In this document: in pieces, positions 9,310 through 46,871 of the stretch
Layout: each line of letters opens with the position of its first letter
Position numbering within the stretch: the stretch's first letter is position 1
Sequence record: OR437326.1
Strand: one strand, 5' to 3'
DNA length: 64,000 nucleotides
Source: Escherichia phage iGC_PHA_EC001
Made by a program: the position numbers and the translations under genes
Notes under the pieces: model-generated
What the model was told of the DNA's origin: nothing
The model's database searches: none
Seen by the model: the letters and a program-made list of their open reading frames with translations, nothing else

Positions 9310-9588
9310 TTATTTCTCCTTTTTAAGTGTAATATTGGTAACTTCTAAATCTACTTCCACCATATTTGTATCTGGTGGGATGCAATGAGTATAGCCTCGT
9401 TGTGCTAGTGATCCATTAATACAAATCGCACTGTTTGTGGAATTTTTAATGAACACCAAGTTACGGTAGGTATCCAACCCTGCGTCTTCATAGGCATCAT
9501 AATACATGAATGTTGCCCCTACGTCAAGATCTTCGAAAGCAATAGGTAAATCTTGACTTTTTTCTTCTTGAATATTGAATCTAAACAC
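9310..9588 (-). CDS. hypothetical protein, small paralog family (copy preceding vWA gene)
   Basis: ORF-track ORF 9310..9654 trimmed to in-frame GTG with RBS gaggagg; paralog of 8019..8288. Confidence 0.5.
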   Translation of the reverse strand: MFRFNIQEEKSQDLPIAFEDLDVGATFMYYDAYEDAGLDTYRNLVFIKNSTNSAICINGSLAQRGYTHCIPPDTNMVEVDLEVTNITLKKEK

Positions 9589-10144
9589 GCATACCTCCTC
9601 TACCAATTTTGAAGCCCAAATCGTAAGCTTCCTTAGTGATCTTTTGTAACTCACTTATAGGAAGTGTTACAAGAGGATCATCTTCTTCAATTTCCATCTT
9701 GTCATCTTCTGTTTCAATGAGAGTATTATGCACTTTGTGATAAGGGTTGTCAACACGTTTAAACTTATTCTTTTCTGTGCTGAAAAAACAATCTGGATCT
9801 TCTTCACCATCACCCCAACCTTGGTTAGGATCTCCGTCAGATTGTTCTGTAGGGATTTCACCTGTAAAGTACTCTTCCAGCACCATAGCGATACCGTCCC
9901 TTGGATTTGAGGAATGCATCAAATCACAAACCTTACTCCAATCCATAGCCCATTCAAATCGTTCACGAACGCCGTTTTCATCCTCCTTTCCAGAGAAAAC
10001 ACAACCATAACTATCATAGTTGCCATACATCTCTTCAATAACAACACCGTCCTTCAAAAGAAAAAGATAACAAGGTGATCCGTCGAAAGAAGTAGAAAGG
10101 GCAGCTTTGCCCGATTCTTTGCACAAAAAGCTAAAACAACCCAT
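9581..10144 (-). CDS. hypothetical protein (187 aa), acidic
   Basis: ORF in operon. Confidence 0.5.
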   Translation of the reverse strand: MGCFSFLCKESGKAALSTSFDGSPCYLFLLKDGVVIEEMYGNYDSYGCVFSGKEDENGVRERFEWAMDWSKVCDLMHSSNPRDGIAMVLEEYFTGEIPTEQSDGDPNQGWGDGEEDPDCFFSTEKNKFKRVDNPYHKVHNTLIETEDDKMEIEEDDPLVTLPISELQKITKEAYDLGFKIGRGGMRV

Positions 10145-26447: not shown

Positions 26448-26753
26448 TTAGAATTCCTCTTCAGTCTTCTGTCGGTTTTTGAAGAATACTACGTCATATA
26501 CCTCTCCGTAACCATCATTTACACAGAACATAATAAAACGATCATCTTCTGCTGTTGGTGCGCGATGTTCAAGTTCAAAACTTTCAATAAAACCGCGTGA
26601 ATTTACGTAGTAGATTTCATCCTCGCCAGAGAACATCCAATCCCTGTCTATCAGATAGAAAGCTAAACTCACAGGCGACAACTCATCCTTCACAGAATCA
26701 TTGTACAGCATGTGGGCTGCAACTGCCAAGCTTAAAGTCGGGTTATACAACAT
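26448..26753 (-). CDS. hypothetical protein, tandem paralog a
   Basis: Paralog of 26753..27061 (E.E.R.P..EDD/E.FIM(F/Y).VN.G.GE...VVF.K). Confidence 0.5.
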   Translation of the reverse strand: MLYNPTLSLAVAAHMLYNDSVKDELSPVSLAFYLIDRDWMFSGEDEIYYVNSRGFIESFELEHRAPTAEDDRFIMFCVNDGYGEVYDVVFFKNRQKTEEEF

Positions 26754-27061
26754 TACACCTCCTCGTCAGACTCATCTGCTTTAGAGAATACAACATTAAA
26801 CGTTTCACCGCAACCATTATTTACGAAATACATGATAAAGTTTTCATCTTCGTCTACAGGGCCACGGTATTCCAGTTCGTAGCTATACAGAGAACTATCG
26901 CTTGTGGCTCCCTGCGGATACCAGAAATAGATCTCATCGAAAGATTTAACCCACTTCAAACCTGTACGATCCTCAAACACTAATGAGGAAGGATTGTCAG
27001 CATCTTTGACAGCTTCTTCATAATCTTGGTGGAACTTGACTGCTGTTGATAATGTGCTCAT
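26753..27061 (-). CDS. hypothetical protein, tandem paralog b
   Basis: ORF-track ORF trimmed to Met14 with RBS gaggagg. Confidence 0.5.
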   Translation of the reverse strand: MSTLSTAVKFHQDYEEAVKDADNPSSLVFEDRTGLKWVKSFDEIYFWYPQGATSDSSLYSYELEYRGPVDEDENFIMYFVNNGCGETFNVVFSKADESDEEV

Positions 27062-35112: not shown

Positions 35113-35292
35113 ATGGCACGTTTAGCAGATCATGAAATCTTTAAACCTATTCTGAACCACTATGATGAACTTAAAGCAGTGTTGGATTGTTATAAAGAGG
35201 ATGAAGAACGCTTGGAAGTCAATCTTAAGATAGTTCTGATGAAAGCTTTTCAAGACGGGCAAGCTAAAGTCTTAGAAGGTATGAAAAAATGA
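35113..35292 (+). CDS. hypothetical protein (59 aa)
   Basis: Trimmed to MARLADHEIF with RBS aaaggag. Confidence 0.4.
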   Translation: MARLADHEIFKPILNHYDELKAVLDCYKEDEERLEVNLKIVLMKAFQDGQAKVLEGMKK

Positions 35293-35831
35293 GAATAACT
35301 GACGAATATGTATTCTTCTTTTCACATAAAGATGTTTTTAGTAATTGGTATATTGCACCCTTTACAGAAACCGAACCAGGTTACAATCAGACATTTAATT
35401 GTGTCGAACAATACATGATGTGGCGTAAAGCTTTGCTTTTTAATGACCACAACACTGCACAGGCTATTCTGACTCATAGTTTGATACGGAAAGATGAGAA
35501 GATCCAAGCTTATTACAAACGTATGGGTAGGGCAGTGTCGGATTTTGATAACAATATGTGGGAAGAGAACCGTGAGCGTATTGTTATGCGAGGTTTATGC
35601 TTGAAATATGTACAGAATCCAGATTTGTATGCAGACTTACACCTTTACCAATACAAAACGTTTGTTGAAGCAAGCCCCTACGATAAGGTTTACGGAATTG
35701 GAATGGGGATGTATGAACCAGGGGTGCTAAACCCTGCCACCTGGAAAGGACAGAATCTTTTAGGCAAATATCATAATAAACTGATCGAAATACTTTTCCC
35801 AGACAAAATACCGCAAAGACGATATTTGTGA
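35289..35831 (+). CDS. NADAR-domain protein (YbiA/DUF1768-like N-glycosidase family)
   Basis: FSNWYIAPF, EQYMMWRKALLF, MGRAVSDFD..W, LKYVQNPDL, VEASPYDKVYGIGMG match the YbiA/NADAR family pattern as recalled. Confidence 0.7.
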   Translation: MRITDEYVFFFSHKDVFSNWYIAPFTETEPGYNQTFNCVEQYMMWRKALLFNDHNTAQAILTHSLIRKDEKIQAYYKRMGRAVSDFDNNMWEENRERIVMRGLCLKYVQNPDLYADLHLYQYKTFVEASPYDKVYGIGMGMYEPGVLNPATWKGQNLLGKYHNKLIEILFPDKIPQRRYL

Positions 35832-35886: not shown

Positions 35887-35925
35887 AGGCTCCTACAGCA
35901 CCGTAGAGAGCCTGTTATTTTGTCC
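35887..35925 (+). terminator. rho-independent terminator after NADAR gene
   Basis: ggctcctac-agcacc-gtagagagcc hairpin followed by tgttattttg. Confidence 0.5.
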
Positions 35926-36071
35926 TATACAAACCCTTGTCTTTTTCAGTTTGCATCACTAGGATTCGATCTGAGTGGGTTCCTGAAGGTCTGCCAATAA
36001 GATTAAAGGTTATCTCAAACTCCCATTACCTATTATCTCAAAAATCCCTCAAATTATTTAAACTTTTTAAG

Positions 36072-36260
36072 AATTTACAAAAGTGAAAGTTGAAAACCAA
36101 AATTTAAAGTTTAGGAAAATTATCTTAAAATGTCAGATACAAAACAAAACTCAAAAGTCAAGGAAAATTTTAAAAATTTTGCGCGCCCACAGTATTTAAA
36201 GTTTTTTTGCTTTTACAAAAATGAAAGTACAAAAGCAAAATTTAAAGTTTACAAAAATTT
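36072..36260. repeat. two imperfect direct repeats (about 45 bp) in AT-rich noncoding DNA
   Basis: ttacaaaagtgaaagttgaaaaccaaaatttaaagtttaggaaaatt (about 36072-36121) and ttacaaaaatgaaagtacaaaagcaaaatttaaagtttacaaaaatt (about 36211-36260). Confidence 0.55.
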
Positions 36261-36298
36261 ATGCAGATGGGAATGAGAAGAGTTCTCATATGGAAATG

Positions 36299-36322
36299 CA
36301 AATGATAATGATTCGCATTTAG
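36299..36322. promoter_or_regulatory. Fur-box-like palindromic motif, copy L1
   Basis: aatgataatgattcgcatttag; compare E. coli Fur box consensus gataatgataatcattatc. Confidence 0.35.
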
Positions 36323-36357
36323 GTTTATAAATGAGATTGATTCTTATTTGATAAGGT

Positions 36358-36388
36358 AAATGATAATCATTCTCATTTAGAGAATGAC
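36358..36388. promoter_or_regulatory. Fur-box-like palindromic motif, copy L2
   Basis: aaatgataatcattctcatttagagaatgac; near-perfect dyad. Confidence 0.4.
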
Positions 36389-36636
36389 GCGCAGGGGCGG
36401 TGTTTGTCTCGCGCTCCCGTGTCCCCTCGCCATGTAATAAGAATAACAGATCCAGCCAGGAAAGCAAGCGATTATTTTATCTTTACATTTCTTTACAAAT
36501 ATATAGCGCCCAGCCTACCGGCGATCAACCTTCCAACCAGTGCCCCTGGTATGTTAGCCCCGCCTTTACGCCGTGGGGTGGCGCTTCCTCTTCTGTATGT
36601 AAAACAGTATAAGCCCGATCCCTGGGCTTGTCAAGA

Positions 36637-36903
36637 TTATTTTTTGTTTTCTTGCCAGGTCAGGACACCTAGCCAAAAATGAATATCACCTTTTCCCCAA
36701 TGTGGTATATTGCTTTCTTTCCCACCTTCACGCGCCCAGGTAAAACCGCCCGTGTAACTTTGTAATTGATAACTATCCTCGACCTTATAATCTGATAGGT
36801 TGAGAACGGTTTCAACCTTTAAGCCCGTTGCGCTTGCTACCTGGTGCACCGTGCCGCCTTGCCAGCCCAATGAGTGCATAAGATGTAATGTAGTATTTGT
36901 CAT
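36637..36903 (-). CDS. hypothetical protein (88 aa) on opposite strand within GC-rich island
   Basis: Only sizeable ORF in the GC-rich segment 36390-37000; codon composition unlike flanking genes. Confidence 0.35.
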   Translation of the reverse strand: MTNTTLHLMHSLGWQGGTVHQVASATGLKVETVLNLSDYKVEDSYQLQSYTGGFTWAREGGKESNIPHWGKGDIHFWLGVLTWQENKK

Positions 36904-37012
36904 GGTGTCGCCCTTTCTTTGTTGTGCGCCCTGGTTGGCGCGGTAGAAAGATGATAGCCCTTTCCTTTATATATAGCAAGCAAAAAGAAAATAAAAAAGA
37001 TTGAAAAAGTGG

Positions 37013-37070
37013 TTGACGTTCGCCAGGTGGCGGCATAATATTTACCACGTAGCGCGGCAATGGTGCCGCT
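37013..37070 (+). promoter_or_regulatory. early promoter plus 5-prime stem-loop cassette 1
   Basis: ttgacg-N17-cataat then gcggcaatggtgccgc hairpin; RBS; ATG 37091. Confidence 0.6.
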
Positions 37071-37090
37071 CACTATTTGGAGTTAAGATC

Positions 37091-37288
37091 ATGGCAACAT
37101 TGCACATTGTGGCGAAAGCTGGACAAATCAACGTAATAGTAAACGGTTTTACTGAGTTCAGTCATCCCCAGGATGATCATGAAACGGTTTTATCTTTCAT
37201 TGATTCCCTGTTAGAAATGGGAGTCATTACAGAAGACCAGCACGCTACAAAATGCAAGCGCGTTAATCAAATTGCAGGGATAGAATAA
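37091..37288 (+). CDS. hypothetical protein (65 aa)
   Basis: Trimmed to MATLHIV downstream of cassette 1. Confidence 0.5.
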   Translation: MATLHIVAKAGQINVIVNGFTEFSHPQDDHETVLSFIDSLLEMGVITEDQHATKCKRVNQIAGIE

Positions 37289-37294
37289 AAAGTA

Positions 37295-37353
37295 TTGACA
37301 ACAAACAACAACCTGATAAGATGTATCACATAGGGCGGGAAGTGGTTTCCCGC
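37295..37353 (+). promoter_or_regulatory. early promoter plus 5-prime stem-loop cassette 2
   Basis: ttgaca..ctgataagatgtatcacata gggcgggaagtggtttcccgc; ATG 37379. Confidence 0.6.
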
Positions 37354-37378
37354 TCGTAACAGAAGAGAGATTATCATC

Positions 37379-37651
37379 ATGGCATCATATAGCGCAACAA
37401 TGATCGTAGCTGGCACAACTGGTAAACCTATGAGCGGTGTCGGATCTTTCGCTAATATCAATATTGACGGGCGTTTATCCCTGGACGCAGCGATTGCCAT
37501 TGCACGGGAAACATTTAAGAAAGAATGTAATTTCAACAAGCAAGATTATCTCGGTTTCGCTATTGAAAAAACCGCGCGCTTTGTTGATTATAAAAGCCCG
37601 AAAATGGTTGATACTACACTAAAAGCGCAAGATGTAGCGTTTTTGCTTTAA
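37379..37651 (+). CDS. hypothetical protein (90 aa)
   Basis: Follows cassette 2 with RBS agagagatt. Confidence 0.55.
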   Translation: MASYSATMIVAGTTGKPMSGVGSFANINIDGRLSLDAAIAIARETFKKECNFNKQDYLGFAIEKTARFVDYKSPKMVDTTLKAQDVAFLL

Positions 37652-37654
37652 GGC

Positions 37655-37710
37655 TTGACATTAACGAATAATTTGTTAATATGTTACATAAAGCGGGAAT
37701 AGTTCCCGCT
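37655..37710 (+). promoter_or_regulatory. early promoter plus 5-prime stem-loop cassette 3
   Basis: ttgaca-N17-taatat, gcgggaatagttcccgc; ATG 37728. Confidence 0.6.
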
Positions 37711-37727
37711 ATTTGTAAGGTGGTAGA

Positions 37728-37985
37728 ATGTTTTACATCAAATTAAAAGGTCACGTGATCGCGTTCAAAGATAACGCTTTTTACAGATTAGCAAAATATG
37801 CGTTAATACATCCCCACTATGTTTATATAAGGGGGCGTGACGAAATAAATATCTTTGATCAAACAACATGCGAAAACATCGAGATCCGCAAGGTTGGCGT
37901 ACGTGATTATCGTACATCTTTCTACCCTTGCAAGGATTCAGCAAGTCTTTTTAAGGTATGTCAATTGTTGAAAAAAGGTGGTTAA
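37728..37985 (+). CDS. hypothetical protein (85 aa)
   Basis: Follows cassette 3. Confidence 0.55.
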   Translation: MFYIKLKGHVIAFKDNAFYRLAKYALIHPHYVYIRGRDEINIFDQTTCENIEIRKVGVRDYRTSFYPCKDSASLFKVCQLLKKGG

Positions 37986-37986
37986 T

Positions 37987-38544
37987 ATGGGCCGCGAATA
38001 TGTGATCCAGTCTTGGGTAAAACATGAAGCAGATGATCCGCGCATCATTCCCGATCATCTTATCGATGAATCCACGGGATATAGCGGTGAGCAAATAGGT
38101 AACAGATTAGCACGTAGTAACGGCAACATAAAAGCGCGTTATGTGCGCCCTGGCTGGCTGGCAAATGGTAACGCTGATTTATCCAGTGCGGAAGATGCGA
38201 GCGACGGCGCGAAAGATAATCCTTTGTACAAAATTGATCCGGCTTTTCGTGTCCTGGATGAATACCCCAGCAAGATAGCGGCGCTTGATGAAGCATTGGA
38301 AAGTAAGCGCATCTCCTGGACCGCTTACAACATGGCAAAAAACGTACTTGATGGTAAATTGATTCAAGCTGAAAGAAAATTAGCCAAAATTGCAGCCATA
38401 GCCCAGGAGGAAGACGAGGAGACAACGGAAGAGGAAGAGTACGAAGAGATCCCGCCGTTGTTGTGTGTTGATGCTTTTCCTGATTATCAGCCGACAGAGG
38501 AAGAAAAAAGGATCGCACTAGAAAACTTTGAAAATAGTCTTTGA
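37987..38544 (+). CDS. hypothetical protein with acidic C-terminus
   Basis: Trimmed to MGREYVIQ (RBS aaaggtgg). Confidence 0.5.
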   Translation: MGREYVIQSWVKHEADDPRIIPDHLIDESTGYSGEQIGNRLARSNGNIKARYVRPGWLANGNADLSSAEDASDGAKDNPLYKIDPAFRVLDEYPSKIAALDEALESKRISWTAYNMAKNVLDGKLIQAERKLAKIAAIAQEEDEETTEEEEYEEIPPLLCVDAFPDYQPTEEEKRIALENFENSL

Positions 38545-38599
38545 CATATCGCCGCCACTGGCATAATATTTACCACGTAGGGCGGCAATGGTGCCGCTC
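38541..38599 (+). promoter_or_regulatory. early promoter plus 5-prime stem-loop cassette 4
   Basis: ttgaca-N17-cataat, gggcggcaatggtgccgctc. Confidence 0.6.
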
Positions 38600-38626
38600 A
38601 TAGTGAAATTATGCAAGAGGTTTACA

Positions 38627-38722
38627 ATGATTGATAAAGAAAATAGCTTGACGGTTGGAACGATTAACGCTATCATTCTTGCCGTTCCATTTTGGATTGT
38701 ATTAGCGGCTATTATTTTCTAA
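38627..38722 (+). CDS. small membrane peptide (31 aa)
   Basis: Own translation MIDKENSLTVGTINAIILAVPFWIVLAAIIF after cassette 4. Confidence 0.35.
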   Translation: MIDKENSLTVGTINAIILAVPFWIVLAAIIF

Positions 38723-38731
38723 AAAATATTC

Positions 38732-38792
38732 TTGACAACGTTTTTTAATCTGATAAGATGTATCACATAGGGCGGCGGAATACTTCCCCGCC
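38732..38792 (+). promoter_or_regulatory. early promoter plus 5-prime stem-loop cassette 5
   Basis: ttgaca..ctgataagatgtatcacata gggcggcggaatacttccccgcc; ATG 38814. Confidence 0.6.
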
Positions 38793-38813
38793 AAAACAAA
38801 AAAGGGTAACACA

Positions 38814-39176
38814 ATGAGCAAGCAAATCAATACTATCATGTTTAATCTGGTATCTTTCCGCGATGATATGAAAAATTTACCACGTGAAACGGTTGATATT
38901 CATGTTTCAGCTTATCGCGCCCTTATTGATATGTTACCGCTAAAACGTGATCAACATGCCGCTAATATGATGCTTAATGCTATGCTTAAAAAGATGATTC
39001 AAACGGATCTTACTCTGGCGTATGAGTATCAAGGGCGCTTATATGCTACTTACAACAAAGCGGTACCTGGTCTGGGAAGTACCGAAGAGTTGCACGGCTT
39101 AAACCTGGATCAAAACACTTGGGATAGTATGCGCCGCGTTATGGTATGGGCCGAAAGCGGTAAAATTTACGAATAA
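38814..39176 (+). CDS. hypothetical protein (120 aa)
   Basis: Follows cassette 5. Confidence 0.55.
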   Translation: MSKQINTIMFNLVSFRDDMKNLPRETVDIHVSAYRALIDMLPLKRDQHAANMMLNAMLKKMIQTDLTLAYEYQGRLYATYNKAVPGLGSTEELHGLNLDQNTWDSMRRVMVWAESGKIYE

Positions 39177-39182
39177 AAACGG

Positions 39183-39240
39183 TTGACACTGTTTAAAATT
39201 CTGGTATAGTTTATCACGTAGGGCGGCAATGGTGCCGCCA
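39183..39240 (+). promoter_or_regulatory. early promoter plus 5-prime stem-loop cassette 6
   Basis: ttgaca-N17-tatagt, gggcggcaatggtgccgcc. Confidence 0.6.
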
Positions 39241-39259
39241 ATAATGAAAGGTTAACATC

Positions 39260-39439
39260 ATGGCTATCATTGCAAAAACTGAGATTATAGGTTTAGATCC
39301 GATCCTCCTGGCTTATGAGGAAACTTTAAAAATGTATGTAGTGACCTATGGTGATTATGTGCGTGAATACGAATACATTGATCTTGCTTTCGAATGTTAC
39401 ATTCGCCAGGTCAATAAAGCCTATAACGATTATCGTTAA
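39260..39439 (+). CDS. hypothetical protein (59 aa)
   Basis: Own translation MAIIAKTEIIGLDPILLAYEETLKMYVV.. after cassette 6. Confidence 0.5.
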   Translation: MAIIAKTEIIGLDPILLAYEETLKMYVVTYGDYVREYEYIDLAFECYIRQVNKAYNDYR

Positions 39440-39450
39440 AAGTTTTAGTC

Positions 39451-39487
39451 TTATACTATTGACAATGAGTGATAGTATAAGCATAAT
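39451..39487 (+). promoter_or_regulatory. sigma70-like promoter with flanking 9-bp inverted repeat (operator-like), no stem-loop
   Basis: TTATACTAT-ttgacaatgagtg-ATAGTATAA then cataat; upstream of gene 39535. Confidence 0.45.
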
Positions 39488-39534
39488 AACTTTTATCGGG
39501 AATACTCCTAACTAATCAAAAGAGATTAAAGACT

Positions 39535-39900
39535 ATGGCTAAAAATATCAATGTTTCTGCTTATGCTACCCTGGCTAACACTGCTAAAATTGAACTATCC
39601 AGCATTGAAGCGGTACATATTAGCGCCCGTCGCTGGTTTCAAAAGTCTTATGGTAATACTTATTTCTCTTTGATGGTTGACGTTGAGATCGGCGGTAAAC
39701 TGATCGAAGTGGTTAACGTTCCGTTTCAATATGGCTATGGGGATCATTTTGATACCGTCGCCCTAGAAGAGTTTAGCAAGGTTATCAACCTGGAAGGTAA
39801 AGAGTTTTCAAATTATGCCTACCTTTCCCGTTTTTGCCGTGACAATGGGATCACTGTATACAGTCATGCGAGCGATGTAAAACGTAAAAAAGATTTATAA
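39535..39900 (+). CDS. hypothetical protein (121 aa)
   Basis: ORF-track ORF, RBS aaagag. Confidence 0.55.
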   Translation: MAKNINVSAYATLANTAKIELSSIEAVHISARRWFQKSYGNTYFSLMVDVEIGGKLIEVVNVPFQYGYGDHFDTVALEEFSKVINLEGKEFSNYAYLSRFCRDNGITVYSHASDVKRKKDL

Positions 39901-39905
39901 AAAGC

Positions 39906-39965
39906 ATTGACAGCACGAATAAAAAGAGTAAACTGTATTACATAGAGAGCGGGAACACTTCCCGC
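39906..39965 (+). promoter_or_regulatory. early promoter plus 5-prime stem-loop cassette 7
   Basis: ttgaca..gtaaactgtattacata, gcgggaacacttcccgc; ATG 39990. Confidence 0.6.
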
Positions 39966-39989
39966 CTCACTGAAAAAGAGAGAAAAATC

Positions 39990-40229
39990 ATGGCTAAATC
40001 TAAAATGTACAACGGTCACAAAAACAAAACTCATTGGAATGTAAGCCTTTGGATTAATAACGATGAATCGTTATACCGGTTGGCCCAAGATTTTATTAAC
40101 GCTAATGCTAATCGTAATGATGCGGCGCGGGATATGATGCTTTTTCTGGAACAAACTGGACAAGATAAAACGCCAGACGGTTTCAAATATAGCACTACTG
40201 CGATCCGTGCCGCGATGGTTGGAATGTAA
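39990..40229 (+). CDS. hypothetical protein (79 aa)
   Basis: Follows cassette 7. Confidence 0.55.
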   Translation: MAKSKMYNGHKNKTHWNVSLWINNDESLYRLAQDFINANANRNDAARDMMLFLEQTGQDKTPDGFKYSTTAIRAAMVGM

Positions 40230-40238
40230 TAAAAACAG

Positions 40239-40298
40239 TTGACAACGTTTAAAATTAGTGTAAGATGTATCACATAGGGCGGGAAGTGGTTTCCCGCC
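40239..40298 (+). promoter_or_regulatory. early promoter plus 5-prime stem-loop cassette 8
   Basis: ttgaca..gtaagatgtatcacata gggcgggaagtggtttcccgcc; ATG 40320. Confidence 0.6.
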
Positions 40299-40319
40299 AA
40301 AACAGAGAGATTAAAGATT

Positions 40320-40547
40320 ATGGCTATCAATATTGTTCGCGTATCCGGCACCGTTGGCACTTCCCAGGTTATTGCAGTTGTAACAAACAAAAAGATTAAT
40401 GATGTATGTGAGATCTTGAATAAGTGGGCTATTGCTAATTTTGGGGAATATGCAAGCGTCGAGTACATCGAATCCTACCAGGTGCCAACCATCAGCCTAA
40501 CCGATCTCAACGTTGATCGCCTGTTATGCCTGGATGAATTGATCTGA
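40320..40547 (+). CDS. hypothetical protein (75 aa)
   Basis: Follows cassette 8. Confidence 0.55.
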   Translation: MAINIVRVSGTVGTSQVIAVVTNKKINDVCEILNKWAIANFGEYASVEYIESYQVPTISLTDLNVDRLLCLDELI

Positions 40548-40556
40548 AAAAGATTG

Positions 40557-40614
40557 TTGACACCGGAAAGAAAAAGAGTAAACTGTATTACGTAGGGCGG
40601 CAATGGTGCCGCTC
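40557..40614 (+). promoter_or_regulatory. early promoter plus 5-prime stem-loop cassette 9
   Basis: ttgaca..gtaaactgtattacgta gggcggcaatggtgccgctc; ATG 40638. Confidence 0.6.
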
Positions 40615-40637
40615 ACAACAAAAGAGAGATTATTACG

Positions 40638-40850
40638 ATGGCTAATATCCGCACACTGTTAAAAAATGCAAGTCAAGTTTTATTTTCTGATCACGATCAT
40701 TTTAATAAAGATATTACAGGCGTGAAGAATATCAAAGATGTAAAAAGTGTTATGGGTATATATTGCAATGTTAAACGTGTTGGAACTTTCGGTGATAAAG
40801 TATTGTACCAATCAGGGGATTACAATTTTACTTTGACAATTATTTCATAA
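40638..40850 (+). CDS. hypothetical protein (70 aa)
   Basis: Follows cassette 9. Confidence 0.55.
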   Translation: MANIRTLLKNASQVLFSDHDHFNKDITGVKNIKDVKSVMGIYCNVKRVGTFGDKVLYQSGDYNFTLTIIS

Positions 40851-40856
40851 AACCGC

Positions 40857-40918
40857 TTGCAATCTTAATAAAATAAAGTAAACTGTATTACATCAAGGCG
40901 GCGGAATGGTCCACCGCC
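40857..40918 (+). promoter_or_regulatory. early promoter plus 5-prime stem-loop cassette 10
   Basis: ttgcaa..gtaaactgtattacatca ggcggcggaatggtccaccgcc; ATG 40943. Confidence 0.55.
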
Positions 40919-40942
40919 TAACAAAGAGAAGAGGAAAATATC

Positions 40943-41164
40943 ATGATCACTTTCGCTATTGTCGCCGTTGTCGCTGGTCAGGTTTACGTAAACGATACAT
41001 TCACCACAGAAGACAAGGCCGCAGGAGACATAACCGCCGTTTACAACGAGTGCAAGGCAGTAGAAAGGATGTTAGCGCCTTGTATGTTAATGAGTGAACG
41101 CCAGGACGGGATAACAGTGTTTACTAACATTGAAACAGGGTACCAAATGGTAGTAACAAAATAA
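40943..41164 (+). CDS. hypothetical protein (73 aa)
   Basis: Follows cassette 10. Confidence 0.55.
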   Translation: MITFAIVAVVAGQVYVNDTFTTEDKAAGDITAVYNECKAVERMLAPCMLMSERQDGITVFTNIETGYQMVVTK

Positions 41165-41167
41165 AGC

Positions 41168-41224
41168 TTGACACGGATTTAATTTTCAGTAAACTGTTAC
41201 ACGTAGGGCGGGAATAGTTCCCGC
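41168..41224 (+). promoter_or_regulatory. early promoter plus 5-prime stem-loop cassette 11
   Basis: ttgaca..gtaaactgttacacgta gggcgggaatagttcccgc; ATG 41243. Confidence 0.6.
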
Positions 41225-41242
41225 TAAAAAGAGAGAAAGACC

Positions 41243-41596
41243 ATGAAAGCACAAAATGCAATTAAAGAGTACATCCTTGCCGCTATCGATTTTAATGATT
41301 ACGGTATTACAACCGAAAAAGAGAAGATCGCGGAATTGATGCGCCGTTTTAATTCCGAGTACTGGTACCCTGATAATCAATCACGTTTTAATTATAGTAT
41401 TGTTAAAGCACTTGCATCATGGTTACAAGGCTTGCCATCAGATATTAACATAGCTTTCGAATATTGGGAAATTGATCGTTTGTTAACATCCTGGGGATAC
41501 ATTAAAGAGAATAGCAGCGATGATAAAATCCAACGAGAAAGGGAAAATTATTGGCTTTATATTGCAGGCGTGATCCTTGCTTGCTCTTATGAATGA
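41243..41596 (+). CDS. hypothetical protein (117 aa)
   Basis: Follows cassette 11. Confidence 0.55.
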   Translation: MKAQNAIKEYILAAIDFNDYGITTEKEKIAELMRRFNSEYWYPDNQSRFNYSIVKALASWLQGLPSDINIAFEYWEIDRLLTSWGYIKENSSDDKIQRERENYWLYIAGVILACSYE

Positions 41597-41602
41597 TAAA
41601 CC

Positions 41603-41657
41603 TTGACAATTTTACAAAACAGTTTAAATTAATAATATAGCGGCAATGGTGCCGCTC
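41603..41657 (+). promoter_or_regulatory. early promoter plus 5-prime stem-loop cassette 12
   Basis: ttgaca-N17-taatat, gcggcaatggtgccgctc; ATG 41676. Confidence 0.55.
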
Positions 41658-41675
41658 ATATAAAGAGGAAACAAA

Positions 41676-41822
41676 ATGAATACATCTAATCGCGCAGAAA
41701 AAATTCAATCTTCCAAGATCCGCAAGGCCTGGAACGAGGAAGTGATCCGCAAAGGCGACAAGCGTAATAAAACAAAGCGCGGGAAGAGTGACAAATATAA
41801 TTGGATGGATTTAGAGGATTAA
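41676..41822 (+). CDS. small basic protein (48 aa)
   Basis: Own translation MNTSNRAEKIQSSKIRKAWNEEVIRKGDKRNKTKRGKSDKYNWMDLED after cassette 12. Confidence 0.45.
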   Translation: MNTSNRAEKIQSSKIRKAWNEEVIRKGDKRNKTKRGKSDKYNWMDLED

Positions 41823-41829
41823 CATAACA

Positions 41830-41858
41830 AGGGCGCACCAAGCGCCCTTTCTTTTTAC
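41830..41858 (+). terminator. rho-independent terminator (repeated hairpin family, copy 1)
   Basis: agggcgcaccaagcgccct followed by ttctttttac. Confidence 0.65.
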
Positions 41859-41877
41859 ATGTAGAGGATAAACAAAA

Positions 41878-42063
41878 ATGACTTTAAACGAGCTTAAAAC
41901 AGCCTACAACGCAACATTAAAAATAGCCGTGCGTTACCGTGACGAATACGGTTTTATTGCGCAGGGCGTTATCCTGGGCTTTTCTGACGATGGTTTGATC
42001 TATGTTGATGCACATCACAACAAGGTTAAACCGGAAAACGTTATCAGTATAAAATATCTTTAA
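41878..42063 (+). CDS. hypothetical protein (61 aa)
   Basis: ORF-track ORF, RBS agaggataa. Confidence 0.45.
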   Translation: MTLNELKTAYNATLKIAVRYRDEYGFIAQGVILGFSDDGLIYVDAHHNKVKPENVISIKYL

Positions 42064-42068
42064 AAGTG

Positions 42069-42128
42069 GTTGACACCATAACCGGACCTGTTAAACTGTA
42101 TTACATCAGGCGGGGAATAGTTCCCACC
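42069..42128 (+). promoter_or_regulatory. early promoter plus 5-prime stem-loop cassette 13
   Basis: ttgaca..gttaaactgtattacatca ggcggggaatagttcccacc; ATG 42148. Confidence 0.55.
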
Positions 42129-42147
42129 ATACAAAAAGGTAAATATT

Positions 42148-42354
42148 ATGATCACCGCAAAACAAGAAAAAATCATTATCGACGTTGCAGCCGTAGCCGC
42201 TATTGCTATTATCGGTACCTACTATGACACCGCGCGTCCTTCCTCCTTGCATGAGATCGCCGCCGTTGCATCAGTTGGCGTACTGTTTTACGTTGGTAAA
42301 CGCTATTTATCACCAATGATTAACAAGCTGACACCGTGGAAAAATAAAGGTTGA
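42148..42354 (+). CDS. small membrane protein (68 aa)
   Basis: Hydrophobic segment AAVAAIAIIGTYY; follows cassette 13. Confidence 0.5.
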   Translation: MITAKQEKIIIDVAAVAAIAIIGTYYDTARPSSLHEIAAVASVGVLFYVGKRYLSPMINKLTPWKNKG

Positions 42355-42405
42355 TCCTGTTTTATATTGTGTTATAGTTATCGTGTAGGGCGGCAATGGT
42401 GCCGC
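42351..42405 (+). promoter_or_regulatory. early promoter plus 5-prime stem-loop cassette 14
   Basis: ttgatc..ttatagttatcgtgta gggcggcaatggtgccgc; ATG 42426. Confidence 0.5.
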
Positions 42406-42425
42406 GCCCCTTTGAGGATGCAATC

Positions 42426-42710
42426 ATGAGTAAAGCTAACACCGTGCTAATGTTTTCCCTGATTAATGATCCCGCTTACTTGTCCAACATGACGCAGGAG
42501 GGTAACACATTAACGGCAACATTCACCAATAAGCTTGACCGAGTGATCATCATCTCACTGAAAACAGTTAGTAAAGGCTTTTACTCGTTAGCTTATCATT
42601 GGATCACTGATACCGATGAGACAAGCCAGGACTATAGCGCCCCTTTCCCTGAATCAATGGCACGGGAGATCATCGCCGCCGTTGTAAATGATGGTTTGTT
42701 TACTGGATAA
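42426..42710 (+). CDS. hypothetical protein (94 aa)
   Basis: Trimmed to MSKANTVLMF after cassette 14. Confidence 0.5.
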   Translation: MSKANTVLMFSLINDPAYLSNMTQEGNTLTATFTNKLDRVIIISLKTVSKGFYSLAYHWITDTDETSQDYSAPFPESMAREIIAAVVNDGLFTG

Positions 42711-42728
42711 AATAATTCAGAAAAAGGC

Positions 42729-42785
42729 TTGCAATCATTTTGGGATAATGTATATTTAATGCATAGGGCGGCGGGAATAGTTCCC
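42729..42785 (+). promoter_or_regulatory. early promoter plus 5-prime stem-loop cassette 15
   Basis: ttgcaa-N17-tatatt..gcata gggcggcgggaatagttccc; ATG 42809. Confidence 0.5.
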
Positions 42786-42808
42786 AAAGCAAACGAGAGG
42801 ATTACACG

Positions 42809-42928
42809 ATGAGCAAGTACACAGTAGAATACACGGTAGAGAATCCGGCAGTATCCGAAGGTAAAAAGATGACATTTGCCATCAGTATAATCGCTTTCGT
42901 TGTCACTATCTTATCAATCATCTTATAA
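42809..42928 (+). CDS. small membrane peptide (39 aa)
   Basis: Own translation MSKYTVEYTVENPAVSEGKKMTFAISIIAFVVTILSIIL. Confidence 0.4.
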   Translation: MSKYTVEYTVENPAVSEGKKMTFAISIIAFVVTILSIIL

Positions 42929-42938
42929 GGTGCACACC

Positions 42939-43100
42939 ATGAAAACAACAGATATTATCAAAGAGATCGCCCTTGCCGCTGACGTTGAGATCGAGGAAGT
43001 GATCGCGCTCAATCTTACAGAAAACGATCTGCGCAACTATGAAGCGGAAAGCGTGAAAGCAAGTGGCGCGGTCCTGGCATATAATCCGGCTAACAAATAG
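42939..43100 (+). CDS. hypothetical protein (53 aa)
   Basis: Trimmed to MKTTDIIKEIA. Confidence 0.4.
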   Translation: MKTTDIIKEIALAADVEIEEVIALNLTENDLRNYEAESVKASGAVLAYNPANK

Positions 43101-43101
43101 T

Positions 43102-43159
43102 TTGACAAGCTGAATCAACCTGATAAGATGTATCACATAGGGGCGACAAGCGCCCCGCC
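43102..43159 (+). promoter_or_regulatory. early promoter plus 5-prime stem-loop cassette 16
   Basis: ttgaca..ctgataagatgtatcacata ggggcgacaagcgccccgcc; ATG 43181. Confidence 0.6.
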
Positions 43160-43180
43160 TAACAGAAGAGAGAAAAAATC

Positions 43181-43459
43181 ATGACCATCGTTAAATTAAC
43201 AACCGAAGAAATGAAAACAATGTTAACCACTAATTTACAAAATTGGAAAATTGGTGTTGACGTTGAAACAGTGTGCAAGTTGAACGACAAACTAACACCG
43301 GACGACATTGAAACGATCATCCGTGCAGATTTCTATGATGCTTTATACGATGATTCCACAGTCCTTGAAACGATGTTGGATAACGCTTGGATCAATCCCG
43401 ATTTGGCGGCTTATGGTCATCTTGCCTTTGAAGCCATCCATAATGTTTATAATCGTTAA
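43181..43459 (+). CDS. hypothetical protein (92 aa)
   Basis: Follows cassette 16. Confidence 0.55.
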   Translation: MTIVKLTTEEMKTMLTTNLQNWKIGVDVETVCKLNDKLTPDDIETIIRADFYDALYDDSTVLETMLDNAWINPDLAAYGHLAFEAIHNVYNR

Positions 43460-43469
43460 GGGGGATAAC

Positions 43470-43580
43470 ATGAATCCGAAAGATATGCAAGCATGGAAAG
43501 GGTACGACGATCTAAGCGCCTTGCGCAATAAGTCAAGCCGTAACCTTAGACGGTTGGAAGCAAAGAAAAAGAAAAAATAG
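43470..43580 (+). CDS. small basic protein (36 aa)
   Basis: MNPKDMQAWKGYDDLSALRNKSSRNLRRLEAKKKKK with RBS aagggggat. Confidence 0.4.
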   Translation: MNPKDMQAWKGYDDLSALRNKSSRNLRRLEAKKKKK

Positions 43581-43581
43581 T

Positions 43582-43640
43582 TTGACAAGTCCGCCTAGTC
43601 TGATAATATGTATCTTGTAGGGCGGCAATGGTGCCGCTCA
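43582..43640 (+). promoter_or_regulatory. early promoter plus 5-prime stem-loop cassette 17
   Basis: ttgaca..ctgataatatgtatcttgta gggcggcaatggtgccgctc; ATG 43659. Confidence 0.6.
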
Positions 43641-43658
43641 CAAGAAGAGAGAAAAATC

Positions 43659-43943
43659 ATGAAAATAACAAAAAGCCTAACTAATTATGCAGCACGTCGC
43701 GGATTATGTTTAACCGTTGAAAACTTAGGGAAAGAAGACTTTTTGTGTTTTTGGGAGCTTGAAAATGATTGCGAGTGGATGTTTTCTTATTCTATCTGCG
43801 AAGATCAAAACGGTTGTTTGTTAACCTGGCGCGGTAATATCTATTTACCGGAAGAAATCAAAGAGGAACTACCAGGCACGATCATGACTGAGAAACAGCT
43901 TAAGGAAGTGATCAATTTTGTAGGGCAAAACATTAAAAAATAA
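43659..43943 (+). CDS. hypothetical protein (94 aa)
   Basis: Trimmed to MKITKSLTNY after cassette 17. Confidence 0.55.
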   Translation: MKITKSLTNYAARRGLCLTVENLGKEDFLCFWELENDCEWMFSYSICEDQNGCLLTWRGNIYLPEEIKEELPGTIMTEKQLKEVINFVGQNIKK

Positions 43944-43947
43944 TAAT

Positions 43948-44011
43948 TTGACAGTAGGCAAACAACGTAGTAAAGTTTATTACATAGAGCGGCGGAATGG
44001 TCCACCGCTCA
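43948..44011 (+). promoter_or_regulatory. early promoter plus 5-prime stem-loop cassette 18
   Basis: ttgaca..gtaaagtttattacata gagcggcggaatggtccaccgctc; cassette ATG at 44031 opens only an 11-codon frame. Confidence 0.55.
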
Positions 44012-44050
44012 CAACAGAAGAGAAACAAATCATGATCCCGACTATGTTTT

Positions 44051-44362
44051 ATGTATCGCGCAAAGGTTAATCTCGTTGGTTATCTGACAGATGAAACTAT
44101 CCGTAAAAATTGGCGTAATGCTGATTTACTGGCTTGCTTATTGATTAATAGTGTCGCTGATGCTTTCCAGTGTGAAACAGCCGAGAGCCTGGAGGCAAAC
44201 TTGTTCGACAATATGGATCAAGCCATTGAAACCTATATTCAATCAAATTTAGATAGCTGGAACAGTAAAACATGGCCTGACAGCTTACGCGATACAACTG
44301 ATCAACTGATCCGCCTTGCCCTGATGGTTGAACGCGATAACGTTTACAACCGCACAAAGTAA
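44051..44362 (+). CDS. hypothetical protein (103 aa); start ambiguous (possible frameshift relative to cassette ATG at 44031)
   Basis: ORF-track ORF; the RBS-positioned ATG at 44031 is in another frame. Confidence 0.45.
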   Translation: MYRAKVNLVGYLTDETIRKNWRNADLLACLLINSVADAFQCETAESLEANLFDNMDQAIETYIQSNLDSWNSKTWPDSLRDTTDQLIRLALMVERDNVYNRTK

Positions 44363-44371
44363 GATTGTACA

Positions 44372-44395
44372 AGGGGCGCACTAAGCGCCCTTTAA
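44372..44395 (+). terminator. terminator hairpin (repeated family, copy 2)
   Basis: aggggcgcactaagcgccctt then tt. Confidence 0.55.
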
Positions 44396-44421
44396 CGTAA
44401 AGAAATGTAAATAATGCGCTA

Positions 44422-44457
44422 TCCCCTATTGACAGGGGATCGGCGTTATATTATATT
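44422..44457 (+). promoter_or_regulatory. sigma70-like promoter with palindrome over -35
   Basis: tcccctaTTGACAgggga-..-tatatt; precedes gene 44503. Confidence 0.45.
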
Positions 44458-44502
44458 TAACTCACTGGCAGCAAACAACGAAACGAAACAAAGGACAACA
44501 CC

Positions 44503-44922
44503 ATGAACATTAAATCAAATAATCCAGCTTACTCCTTCGATAACGCTTTTTGTCACGGTAGCGCCGCCAAAGGCTTCGAAATCGATGGTAAATTGGTTAT
44601 CGTGAACGTTGACGGGGAAGAGGTTGCAGTGTATCCGGTAAACGATGTTAAAAGCCGTTTACAATGCCGCATGGATGTTACCGCATATCAGCTTGATCCG
44701 GTCCGTGTAGTTGCCCTGGTATTAGAGGAAGAGATCAAAGCAATGCATCATAGCAATAAGTTTATTGGTGACGCGCAGGACAATATGAACGTTTGCCGCC
44801 ATAAAGTTAATGAAGCCTTGAAAGAATGCGGTTTTAAGGATCTGATGATCAAACGTGATGAAAAATTCCGCTTTCGTAATGACCTGGCAAACCGGATCTA
44901 CTCAATCTATGAAGCGTTATAA
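44503..44922 (+). CDS. hypothetical protein (139 aa)
   Basis: ORF-track ORF. Confidence 0.55.
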   Translation: MNIKSNNPAYSFDNAFCHGSAAKGFEIDGKLVIVNVDGEEVAVYPVNDVKSRLQCRMDVTAYQLDPVRVVALVLEEEIKAMHHSNKFIGDAQDNMNVCRHKVNEALKECGFKDLMIKRDEKFRFRNDLANRIYSIYEAL

Positions 44923-44935
44923 TTGACAACAAAAC

Positions 44936-44965
44936 AAGGGGCGCACTAAGCGCCCTTTCTTTTTG
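44936..44965 (+). terminator. rho-independent terminator (repeated family, copy 3)
   Basis: aaggggcgcactaagcgccctt followed by tctttttg. Confidence 0.65.
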
Positions 44966-45926
44966 CCTGAATAATGTTGATAGATTCCGCCTATGGAAAA
45001 CAGACACAGAACAAAACTGAATAAATAGCGGTATCAAGCTAATCAACCATTAAACGAATAACCATACCTCCCAGGGTAACAGGCTGTTAGAGAGCCATTT
45101 ATAGCGGTTAAAATCGATCAACAACCAACAACAAACCATCAAAAACACCCTTTTACCTCCTTTCTAGTGCAATGATAACCATTATCATCTATCCATGTTT
45201 ATCTATGCAATATAAGTGCATAACTATAATGTTGATAATAGTTCGCAACAACTAACTAACCAACAACCTAAAACAATAAGCAAACTAATCATAATCAAAG
45301 GAATAATAGCAAGATGATTGATAACGACAAACAATCAAACCATGATGAATACTAAGCAAGATAACGATAACACGACAAAACAACCAACTAACGAACAATA
45401 ACAAACGAAACCATTAAAATAATAACTATTAGCAAAATAGTGCCTGAATGAAATCATTACAAAACGAATCATTCCCAGGATCATCATTAGCACGCTATGC
45501 CGGACACATAGCGAGCTAATAATAAGCCAACTACACCCCAACAATCATAACCATCGGTGATGGTTATTTCTTGTTACTGCGTAGCTTGCAATAATTGCAA
45601 GCGTAATGACGCTTACACTTATTGCGCTGGCTTATTATTAGCATTATATGTAATTACCAAGATCATAACATTAGCGCAATAACAATAATCATTGTAGTAA
45701 TTACAAGATGAAATCATTAGCAAGATGAATAATTGCACGTAGCAACATGAGCGAATAGCGACAGGTTGCATAGTGTGCACATAGTGTATAAACATACAGG
45801 AAAATAAAGGCTAATCTTTTGGGGGCGAATACTATCGCGTAGCGATATGTTGAGCATCTTCTCTTAAACGTAAATAAAATCAGAAAATTCTTGATTTATT
45901 TTAGTTTTTATGTTAATAAACGTTTA

Positions 45927-45948
45927 AATAATAATCATTCTCATATAA
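45927..45948. promoter_or_regulatory. Fur-box-like palindromic motif, copy R1
   Basis: aataataatcattctcatataa. Confidence 0.3.
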
Positions 45949-46105
45949 ATAATAGTCTGCTTGTCATGAGCGGGATCAGTTGACAATGTTCCGTCATATG
46001 ATGAGGTTGCCAAACCATTGATAAATAAGTGTTTGTGTGATTTATAATCAAGTGGCCCACCTTGTCGCTACGTTGGCATGAGCCTTGCATAAGTCATTGA
46101 ATACG

Positions 46106-46127
46106 AATGATAATTATTCTCATTCGC
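46106..46127. promoter_or_regulatory. Fur-box-like palindromic motif, copy R2
   Basis: aatgataattattctcattcgc. Confidence 0.35.
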
Positions 46128-46466
46128 ATGATATTTGGGAATTGTCGCTGCGTGGACCTGACGGCCCGAAAATTCGCGTTAAGCACTTCTTACGTATGCG
46201 CCATGATTTTTTGCCATATGATATTGATTCTATTAGATATTCTTGCCATGATTGCCATGAAACAGGGTGTGTCGAAATAATCTCTCCCCGTAGATATTTT
46301 GGGTTACTTTTTATACAAGAGTGGGGTGTCAAAAATAATCGGTATATATGGGATAATTGATAGGAATCCCCTATGATAATTCTATTGTAATTCCCTAAGA
46401 TCGATCGTATGATGTTGGTGATTGATGATTGCCATGAAAGATGGCTAACGATGAGAGGAGATTATC

Positions 46467-46871
46467 ATGCAAGAGAGTAAAAATGTTCCGTTGAGTAGTG
46501 CAGAATTGATTCGATTCTACAAAGCATGGATGGCTGATCACTTCAGCATGGATCGCACGAAGAATGGTCTGTGCACTTGTCTTGTAAATTTCCTAGCCTC
46601 AACACTACAACCTGAAAACCCGACAGAGGATCAATGGATAACCTACTTAAAGATACGTAATAAGATTGTAAGAGAGATGAAATCTCAATTTCTTTGTGCT
46701 AACCTGTCTTATGTCTTTCCATTTAATATGGGCTTCCAAGATTATGAAAATGAAGTCAAACACAAAAGGTGTCATGAAAACCAACTACGTGTGCAATGGG
46801 TTAAGGACAGAATTGAAGATTGTTTGAATAATTATGAGGATGTGTTATGCGAACAAAACAAATCTCGTTAA
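46467..46871 (+). CDS. paralog family A member 1 (FY..W..../GLC/CHxN/WVKD signature)
   Basis: LIRFYKAWMADHF..NGLCTCL..PFN..CHENQLRVQWVKDRIEDC. Confidence 0.6.
   Translation: MQESKNVPLSSAELIRFYKAWMADHFSMDRTKNGLCTCLVNFLASTLQPENPTEDQWITYLKIRNKIVREMKSQFLCANLSYVFPFNMGFQDYENEVKHKRCHENQLRVQWVKDRIEDCLNNYEDVLCEQNKSR

Follow-up and report, generated by a model that had tools for sequence, protein, structure and literature searches.

Predicted Fur boxes at the genome ends and at the early-module border of a phAPEC8-like coliphage

Copies of a palindromic motif in two noncoding regions of Escherichia phage iGC_PHA_EC001 are predicted boxes for the host regulator Fur, a reading that is strongly supported by sequence analysis. 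The stretch of DNA analyzed, here called the window, comprises 64,000 nucleotides of record OR437326.1, and the two noncoding regions flank an array of early gene cassettes that lies at one end of the phage genome. The boxes are probably high-affinity sites for host Fur that would serve as boundary elements at the edges of this terminal early module, a function that we infer. A general role as Fur operators is unlikely because the roughly 20 strong early promoters all lie clear of the boxes, and for the same reason a boundary element is likelier than a repressor switch. Fur boxes as such are textbook knowledge, but conserved arrays of them at the termini and at the early-module border of virulent phages are not described in the searchable literature. 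If Fur does bind, then a large group of coliphages that is popular for therapy would read host iron at the onset of infection, which would be relevant to iron-limited tissues.

The region examined (window 35900-46500) matches Escherichia phage tuntematon (Phapecoctavirus, Stephanstirmvirinae), with 97.5% identity over 99% of the length, and many other phAPEC8-like phages also resemble it. An earlier note on this DNA had described four copies of the motif, all of which are present, at 36301-36319, 36359-36377, 45927-45945 and 46106-46124. A search that allows up to three mismatches adds three copies, at 36272-36290, 36330-36348 and 45171-45189. The left copies thus start at 36272, 36301, 36330 and 36359, an exact tandem spacing of 29 bp over the span 36272-36377. 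Tandem Repeats Finder likewise assigns a period of 29 to this left array, which is direct-repeat family D1 and which the annotation of tuntematon lists as a repeat region only.

Scored with the E. coli Fur matrix described below, the first box of the left array (AATGAGAAGAGTTCTCATA, 36272-36290) is degenerate, at 15.3 bits, and is in 29-bp register with the other three. The second (AATGATAATGATTCGCATT, 36301-36319) reaches 26.5 bits and has an overlapping site at 36295 with 17.0 bits, such that the pair covers 36295-36319. The third (AATGAGATTGATTCTTATT, 36330-36348) scores 23.1 bits, and the fourth (AATGATAATCATTCTCATT, 36359-36377) scores 29.0 bits, with an overlapping site of 14.9 bits at 36353 that extends the feature to 36353-36377. 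The right region holds three boxes. One (AATGATAACCATTATCATC, 45171-45189, 21.1 bits) has the same sequence in tuntematon and in the related phage phiWec181 and lies outside the terminal repeat of the genome, whereas the other two lie inside it: AATAATAATCATTCTCATA at 45927-45945, with 25.0 bits, and AATGATAATTATTCTCATT at 46106-46124, with 28.6 bits and an overlapping site of 20.9 bits at 46100 (together 46100-46124). A further site at 45418-45436 (AATAATAACTATTAGCAAA) is weak and doubtful, with 19.5 bits in the window and 15.8 bits in tuntematon, and could have arisen by chance. The centre base of the boxes varies among C, G and T. Apart from the boxes, a comparison of the left and right noncoding regions found nothing in common. 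Sub-sites offset by 6 bp occur at 36295/36301, 36353/36359 and 46100/46106, and this offset is the spacing described for clusters of Fur sites (Chen et al., PMC2189734).

The matrix was derived de novo, by palindromic expectation-maximisation, from 12 intergenic Fur-regulated promoter regions of Escherichia coli K-12 (fepA-fes, fepD-entS, fepB-entC, fhuA, fecI, fecA, cirA, fiu, tonB, exbB, ryhB and fur). Although made from E. coli DNA only, it has a consensus, AATGATAATCATTATCATT, that shares the 19-bp frame of the phage motif. The 11 top-scoring sites in the 64-kb window all fall within the two noncoding regions, with scores from 29.0 down to 14.9 bits; the E. coli sites used for training score 15.6-27.3 bits. 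An independent matrix thus recovers the resemblance to the Fur consensus noted earlier, with phage sites that score as high as E. coli sites or higher. A reverse test gave the same answer. A matrix built from seven window sites was run against about 61 kb of K-12 DNA taken around the 12 promoters, and its top 14 matches all fell in the Fur-regulated promoter regions, which account for 4.1% of the sequence. The correlation between the two matrices is r = 0.96. Moreover, the 45927 box shares its first 18 nucleotides with the Fur box of E. coli ryhB, and each of the five strongest sites departs from the Fur 7-1-7 consensus at one or two of 14 positions.

Given a genome of 39% G+C and an AT-rich motif, the similarity could in principle be a matter of chance in AT-rich noncoding DNA, but this explanation has a negligible probability. 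Over 200 dinucleotide shuffles of the window sequence, the mean of the best scores was 17.2 bits and the maximum was 24.0, whereas the four sites of the earlier note score 25.0-29.0 bits. Seven sites of at least 20 bits were observed, against 0.125 expected from the shuffles. A search for the 18-mer with up to three mismatches gave 12 strand-hits, against 0.75 expected, and none of 100 shuffles attained 12. The earlier view that four copies are less plausible as chance matches thus holds. Chance is refuted by these shuffles, by the conservation of the boxes in a relative with a genome of 50.7% G+C and by their persistence as conserved islands between diverged flanks. Six other consensus sequences (Zur, ArgR, LexA, CRP, FNR and IHF, as plain consensus strings) were tried as alternatives, and all fit poorly.

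The places that the boxes occupy become clear once the ends of the genome are located. In the record of phage Schickermooser (MK373788), the first 329 bp and the last 329 bp are 100% identical, and their counterpart in the window is 45853-46181. This 329-bp stretch, mapped from Schickermooser, is the equivalent of the direct terminal repeat, that is, of the physical ends of virion DNA, and the start or end points of many other records coincide with its boundaries. The Schickermooser repeat was published as 328 bp (Korf et al., PMC6563267). The boxes at 45927 and 46106 lie within the repeat and are therefore found at both ends of virion DNA, and the position of the repeat also means that the early cassette array at 37013-44958 lies at the right genome end. 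With the end set in this way, the four-box array is located about 9.9 kb inward from it, or 6.5% of the genome. Matrix scans of the 64-kb window and of a further 100 kb of tuntematon, which together amount to about 90% of the genome, found no site of 15 bits or more in the window outside the two noncoding regions and none above 16.2 bits in the additional tuntematon sequence. In this scanned part, the boxes are confined to two loci, the inner edge of the early module and the genome ends.

This distribution bears on the idea of Fur titration, by which replicating phage genomes would sequester Fur and thereby derepress iron uptake by the host for the benefit of phage iron enzymes such as ribonucleotide reductases. 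Multicopy Fur boxes derepress the Fur regulon, an effect on which the Fur titration assay is based; there are 7-11 strong sites per genome, and the phage encodes both aerobic and anaerobic ribonucleotide reductases. A single infecting genome, however, meets thousands of Fur molecules, such that titration would be relevant only late, when host expression probably no longer counts. It would also leave unexplained why the boxes stay at the ends of the genome and at the border of the module and are absent elsewhere. Titration is accordingly given a very low probability as the function of the boxes.

The boxes are conserved across eight genera of rV5/phAPEC8-like phages. From one to four high-scoring boxes stand at the corresponding position ahead of the early array in Vequintavirus rV5, Certrevirus CR8, Mydovirus Mydo, Seunavirus PVP-SE1, Henunavirus pEp_SNUABM_01, Justusliebigvirus alia and Klebsiella phage KP13-26, and the 29-bp spacing is retained in Mydo and in CR8, the phage of 50.7% G+C. 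In rV5, CR8 and Mydo, for which long flanks were fetched, boxes are also found in the noncoding region that follows the array. Box 4 of the left array is the most conserved block in alignments of four and of seven genera. The right-hand segment was compared with phiWec181, to which it is about 70% identical, and all three right-hand boxes are kept there amid diverged flanks. The 45927 box forms a conserved island with 18 of 18 positions identical, and box 46106 has gained a single GATAAT hexamer, an insertion of 6 bp that keeps the register. A 51-bp block that holds boxes 3 and 4 has the opposite orientation in tuntematon (window 36329-36379 versus 3431-3483 of the tuntematon locus L001), and 49 of its 51 positions are identical after reverse complementation. 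The inversion suggests recombination between palindromic boxes, and it would be harmless because the site is a dyad.

The motif extends beyond these genera. A distant BLAST search with the left array matched T5-like phages, and the motif is present in many viral contigs of the IMG/VR collection, which span 21-57% G+C; 40 of 120 loci with one perfect box have at least three sites. Among unrelated contigs, several (L019, L042, L073, L078, L103 and others) carry three to nine Fur-type boxes at a spacing of 23-60 bp, and in five (L033, L052, L089, L150 and L157) a cluster of boxes lies within tens of bases of the contig end. Such clusters may reflect a general pattern in viral contigs, but the contigs were chosen for a perfect box, and repeats may themselves break assemblies. 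Boxes were within 700 bp of a contig end in 20 of 42 cases as opposed to 21% expected, a figure that is not relied on because of such breaks at palindromic repeats. Strict tandem pairs occurred in 23 stretches of the viral contig collection, whose base total is not given, versus 15 in 596 Gb of bacterial genomes.

The phage does not appear to supply its own Fur. A tblastn search with E. coli Fur found no match in the window or in related phage loci, and a search for Fur among 50,697 phage records found no phAPEC8-, rV5- or T5-like phage among the 20 matches listed, nor any such phage when organism groups were tallied over 31 Fur-matching records. At the sensitivity of BLAST, a phage-encoded Fur is thus excluded. 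The motif is also found in T5-like phages, whose tested left-end proteins have no homologue in the window phage, and in IMG/VR contigs, and the simplest predicted binder is a ubiquitous host protein. The reading of the motif as a Fur box is as well supported as sequence analysis allows.

The sites could instead be iterons, or they could bind a phage protein that has no relation to Fur (for example, a packaging factor, a replication initiator or a regulator of early genes), in which case the likeness to Fur boxes would be coincidence or mimicry. The 29-bp tandem spacing does recall origin iterons, as do the AT-rich direct repeats on the array's far side (36050-36259; families D2-D4), which consist of two copies of a 138-bp unit with sub-repeats. 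The transcription-activated origins of T4 and T7 have a strong promoter followed by an AT-rich region, and the promoter and AT-rich region of the array resemble such origins. In T5, DnaA boxes stand beside its array, and in the window most nearby genes have no assigned function. What makes the explanation improbable is that the motif equals the Fur matrix at every position, including the unconstrained centre and the sub-sites offset by 6 bp, and that it is shared by phage groups without homologues of the tested proteins from the T5 first-step-transfer region and by viral contigs of widely different G+C content. A Pfam scan of the four flanking genes, together with PHROGs, found no DNA-binding domain, and the toleration of inversion is expected for a symmetric dimer on a dyad.

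The AT-rich repeats contain the sub-repeats TTTACAAAAGTGAAAGT...AAAATTTAAAGTTTA and could be an origin-like element or a phage-specific promoter element. Other genera have analogous AT-rich repeats of different sequence in the same place.

Genes in the window run leftward until about 30 kb and rightward beyond that point. The early cassette array (37013-44958, plus strand) has about 20 promoters of the form TTGACA-16/17-TAAnAT and ends at a terminator at 44936-44958. In the three cassettes inspected (37013-37720), a near-consensus sigma-70 promoter is followed by a GC-rich 5' stem-loop, a ribosome-binding site and a small gene. Promoter density on the plus strand across 37013-44457 is 8-9 per 4 kb, approximately two- to ninefold that of the rest of the window. 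A check of the roughly 20 strong sigma-70 cassette promoters found none overlapped by a box. On the minus strand, the sole strong leftward sigma-70 promoter, TTGACA-17-TATACT at 36606-36634 (read from 36634 to 36606), matches 11 of 12 consensus positions and points toward the four-box array, which is located about 230 bp away beyond a conserved GC-rich element. Counterparts at the same position were read from the alignment as TTGACG-17-CATAAT in CR8 and TTGCAA-17-TATATT in Mydo. Beyond the AT-rich repeats lies the end of a convergent operon, whose last gene encodes a NADAR-domain protein. The left array therefore sits between convergent transcription units and not on a promoter.

This arrangement weighs on the proposal of the earlier note that the motif is an operator. 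In its classical form, each box would repress an overlapping promoter so that a few transcripts are made only at low iron, the candidates being a transcript that runs rightward from the left end of the genome or transcripts that start within the array and run leftward. The best placed candidate is TTGATT-17-TAATAA on the plus strand at 45890-45918, about 40 bp inside the left genome end, for which the 45927 box would cover approximately positions +1 to +20. It was read by eye, and phiWec181 keeps its -35 hexamer, its spacing and a -10-like hexamer, TAAGAA; the -10 lacks the final T, however, and the promoter scan made no call there. Box 46106 overlaps TTGCAT-18-GATAAT, but that -35 hexamer is not kept in phiWec181. 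On the minus strand, a weak TTTATA-18-TATCAT was called at 36331-36302. Fur boxes inherently hold -10-like hexamers such as GATAAT and TATCAT, and the box of ryhB sits between -35 and -10. All of the candidate promoters are nevertheless weak, with at most 9 of 12 consensus positions or a -10 without its final T, and no strong early promoter is overlapped. Four tandem boxes also exceed what a single operator needs, and neither strand has a gene immediately downstream of the left array. Classical Fur operators are thus an unlikely account of the boxes. Of the earlier proposal, the Fur box stands by its sequence match, but the operator is not supported in the form given, apart from the one weak candidate at 45890-45918, which with the 45927 box is the only reasonable operator-type arrangement found.

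The boxes are most likely Fur-bound boundary elements, with a true operator possible at the genome end. Fe2+-Fur, which is present in the host before DNA entry, would occupy the sites at once, and the four boxes spaced by 29 bp, with their sub-sites offset by 6 bp, would nucleate a Fur filament of approximately 110-130 bp. Such a filament would form a protein barrier that halts RNA polymerase, or another process that tracks along DNA, at the edges of the host-transcribed early module. The box at the genome end might also serve as an operator on one weak promoter. Events at the module edges would thereby depend on the iron status of the host.

Several points weigh against a boundary role. Established Fur operators overlap promoters, whereas most of the phage boxes are off any promoter. 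To our knowledge, a regular, non-overlapping spacing of 29 bp is not a feature of Fur regulons, and we know of no established precedent that could be cited for Fur as a barrier. A phage DNA-binding protein unrelated to Fur could recognize the same dyad, and most of the neighbouring genes are among those without an assigned function. Finally, the matrix scans cover all but about 15 kb of the genome.

The GC-rich element between the leftward promoter and the array (36380-36605, minus strand; alignments A1 and A2) could be a structured non-coding RNA of about 230 nucleotides, in which case it would end at the Fur array. It is conserved across at least seven genera, and its consensus fold has 43 pairs, three of which show compensatory changes. 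A CCAGG...CCTGG hairpin within it varies by insertions, deletions and compensatory changes, and the stem around the loop GAGACAAACAC covaries as GCG/CGC, TCG/CGA and CCGG/CCGG. Folding of the single sequence gave no significant result for the two strands (z = -1.6 and -1.2), and searches of the noncoding regions with Rfam, at gathering and at permissive thresholds, and with a tRNA scan found nothing credible. A Fur box together with the adjacent GC-rich hairpin has been duplicated, with loops TGTTTGTCTC and GAGACAAACA. In CR8 (locus L015, about 26730-26818), the second copy of the box and hairpin is inverted and lies beyond the early array, and rV5 (locus L014, 16137-16200) has the copies side by side as a tandem. 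Box and hairpin thus act as a single module.

Other features of the two regions may be noted. The NADAR gene upstream of the left noncoding region, which it adjoins, occupies 35289-35831 (Pfam PF08719, E = 1e-35), and an open reading frame of 88 amino acids on the minus strand, among the flanking genes, has no assigned function in Pfam or PHROGs. Between the terminator of the last cassette and the terminal repeat, about 0.9 kb of noncoding DNA (44960-45852) is strongly A/C-rich on the plus strand, with short repeats of the CAACAA type. The right noncoding region as a whole (1.5 kb) was examined for open reading frames, and none was convincing. In phiWec181, conserved blocks span both boundaries of the terminal repeat, and these may be sequences for terminase cutting or recognition.

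Among known systems, the operators of E. coli ryhB, fhuA, fecI and fepB-entC share with the phage sites the 19-bp dyad, its register and the sub-sites offset by 6 bp. The phage sites differ in that they are off strong promoters, are arranged in a non-overlapping 29-bp tandem, lie partly in a terminal repeat and belong to a virulent phage. A host Fur site on a phage genome has a counterpart in the Fur-repressed stx1 promoter of lambdoid Shiga-toxin prophages, said to have been described by Calderwood and Mekalanos in 1987, but that operator is a single site at a toxin promoter of a temperate phage; it is neither an array nor terminal, and it is not part of a developmental layout. The origin iterons of plasmids and phages are likewise short tandem repeats beside an AT-rich repeated region and a promoter, whereas the repeats in the window are dyads that match a host regulator and have a 29-bp spacing that is not in helical phase. 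A search of the neighbouring genes with Pfam and PHROGs found no initiator-like domain.

The motif recurs in array form in the 'Repeat Region 3' of T5, a candidate injection stop that contains direct repeats C and palindromes E-I. The E. coli matrix finds sites in T5 at 9473 (24.9 bits), 9577 (29.0 bits) and 9612 (24.7 bits), each with a partner offset by 6 bp; the first 12 kb contain no other site above 16 bits. These sites coincide with the annotated palindromes E, G and I and with direct repeats C. They adjoin an inverted repeat of DnaA boxes at the calculated shear point of first-step transfer, near 9618, and lie just left of the 7.9% nick at 9661-9668. Papers of 2020, 2023 and 2026 describe only repeats, palindromes and DnaA boxes in this region and never mention Fur boxes, and no searchable paper links Fur to the T5 stop region or to rV5-like phages.

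The differences from T5 are considerable. The T5 array lies inside a terminal repeat of 10 kb, whereas the repeat of the window phage is 329 bp and its four-box array is outside it, and T5 has paired DnaA boxes beside the array as well as genes A1 and A2. The window noncoding regions contain no DnaA box (TTWTNCACA), with a total for the window below chance expectation, and no long inverted repeats of the T5 style were found in the window. A tblastn search with 18 left-end proteins of T5 (the first-step-transfer set including A1 and A2, plus ORF018) found no homologue in the window phage. Because DnaA boxes, A1/A2 and a long terminal repeat are lacking, the window array is not classed as a T5-type stop signal.

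It is nevertheless conceivable, if doubtful, that the array is the core of a signal that stops or pauses injection, as at the 8% position of T5, with Fur on the array helping to halt internalisation after entry of the terminal early module. There is no report of two-step transfer in rV5- or phAPEC8-like phages, and it is not evident how a cytoplasmic protein on DNA that is already internalised would block further entry. Arrest of T5 DNA does occur in vivo without protein synthesis, but in vitro, with FhuA liposomes, the DNA is transferred completely, as described in the T5 literature, and a pre-existing host factor is therefore implied. The array of the window phage is, as expected of a T5-type stop, a noncoding cluster of repeats and palindromes 6-8% from a genome end (here 6.5%) that bounds the early genes. 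We consider it a long shot that Fur-box arrays form the shared core of a checkpoint for DNA entry or the early module in two unrelated groups of large virulent phages of enterobacteria, T5-like siphoviruses and rV5/phAPEC8-like myoviruses, at which Fur would help to arrest internalisation or transcription-coupled progress after the terminal 6-8%, where the genes for host takeover lie. If this were true, Fur would be the missing host factor of the 50-year-old injection stop of T5, and iron status would gate infection. The motif is located where transfer of T5 DNA stops, and the question is directly testable.

The likenesses between the two phages lie in sequence and in layout. T5-like arrays have spacings of 29, 35 and 58 bp, and the left array of the window has 29 bp. 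In T5, the array (9473-9630) is 9.5 kb from the genome end, as compared with 9.9 kb in the window phage, and in both it stands at the inner edge of early genes read by host RNA polymerase. The order common to T5 and the window phage is a genome end, early genes directed outward, divergent promoters, an inward unit, the Fur array and direct repeats.

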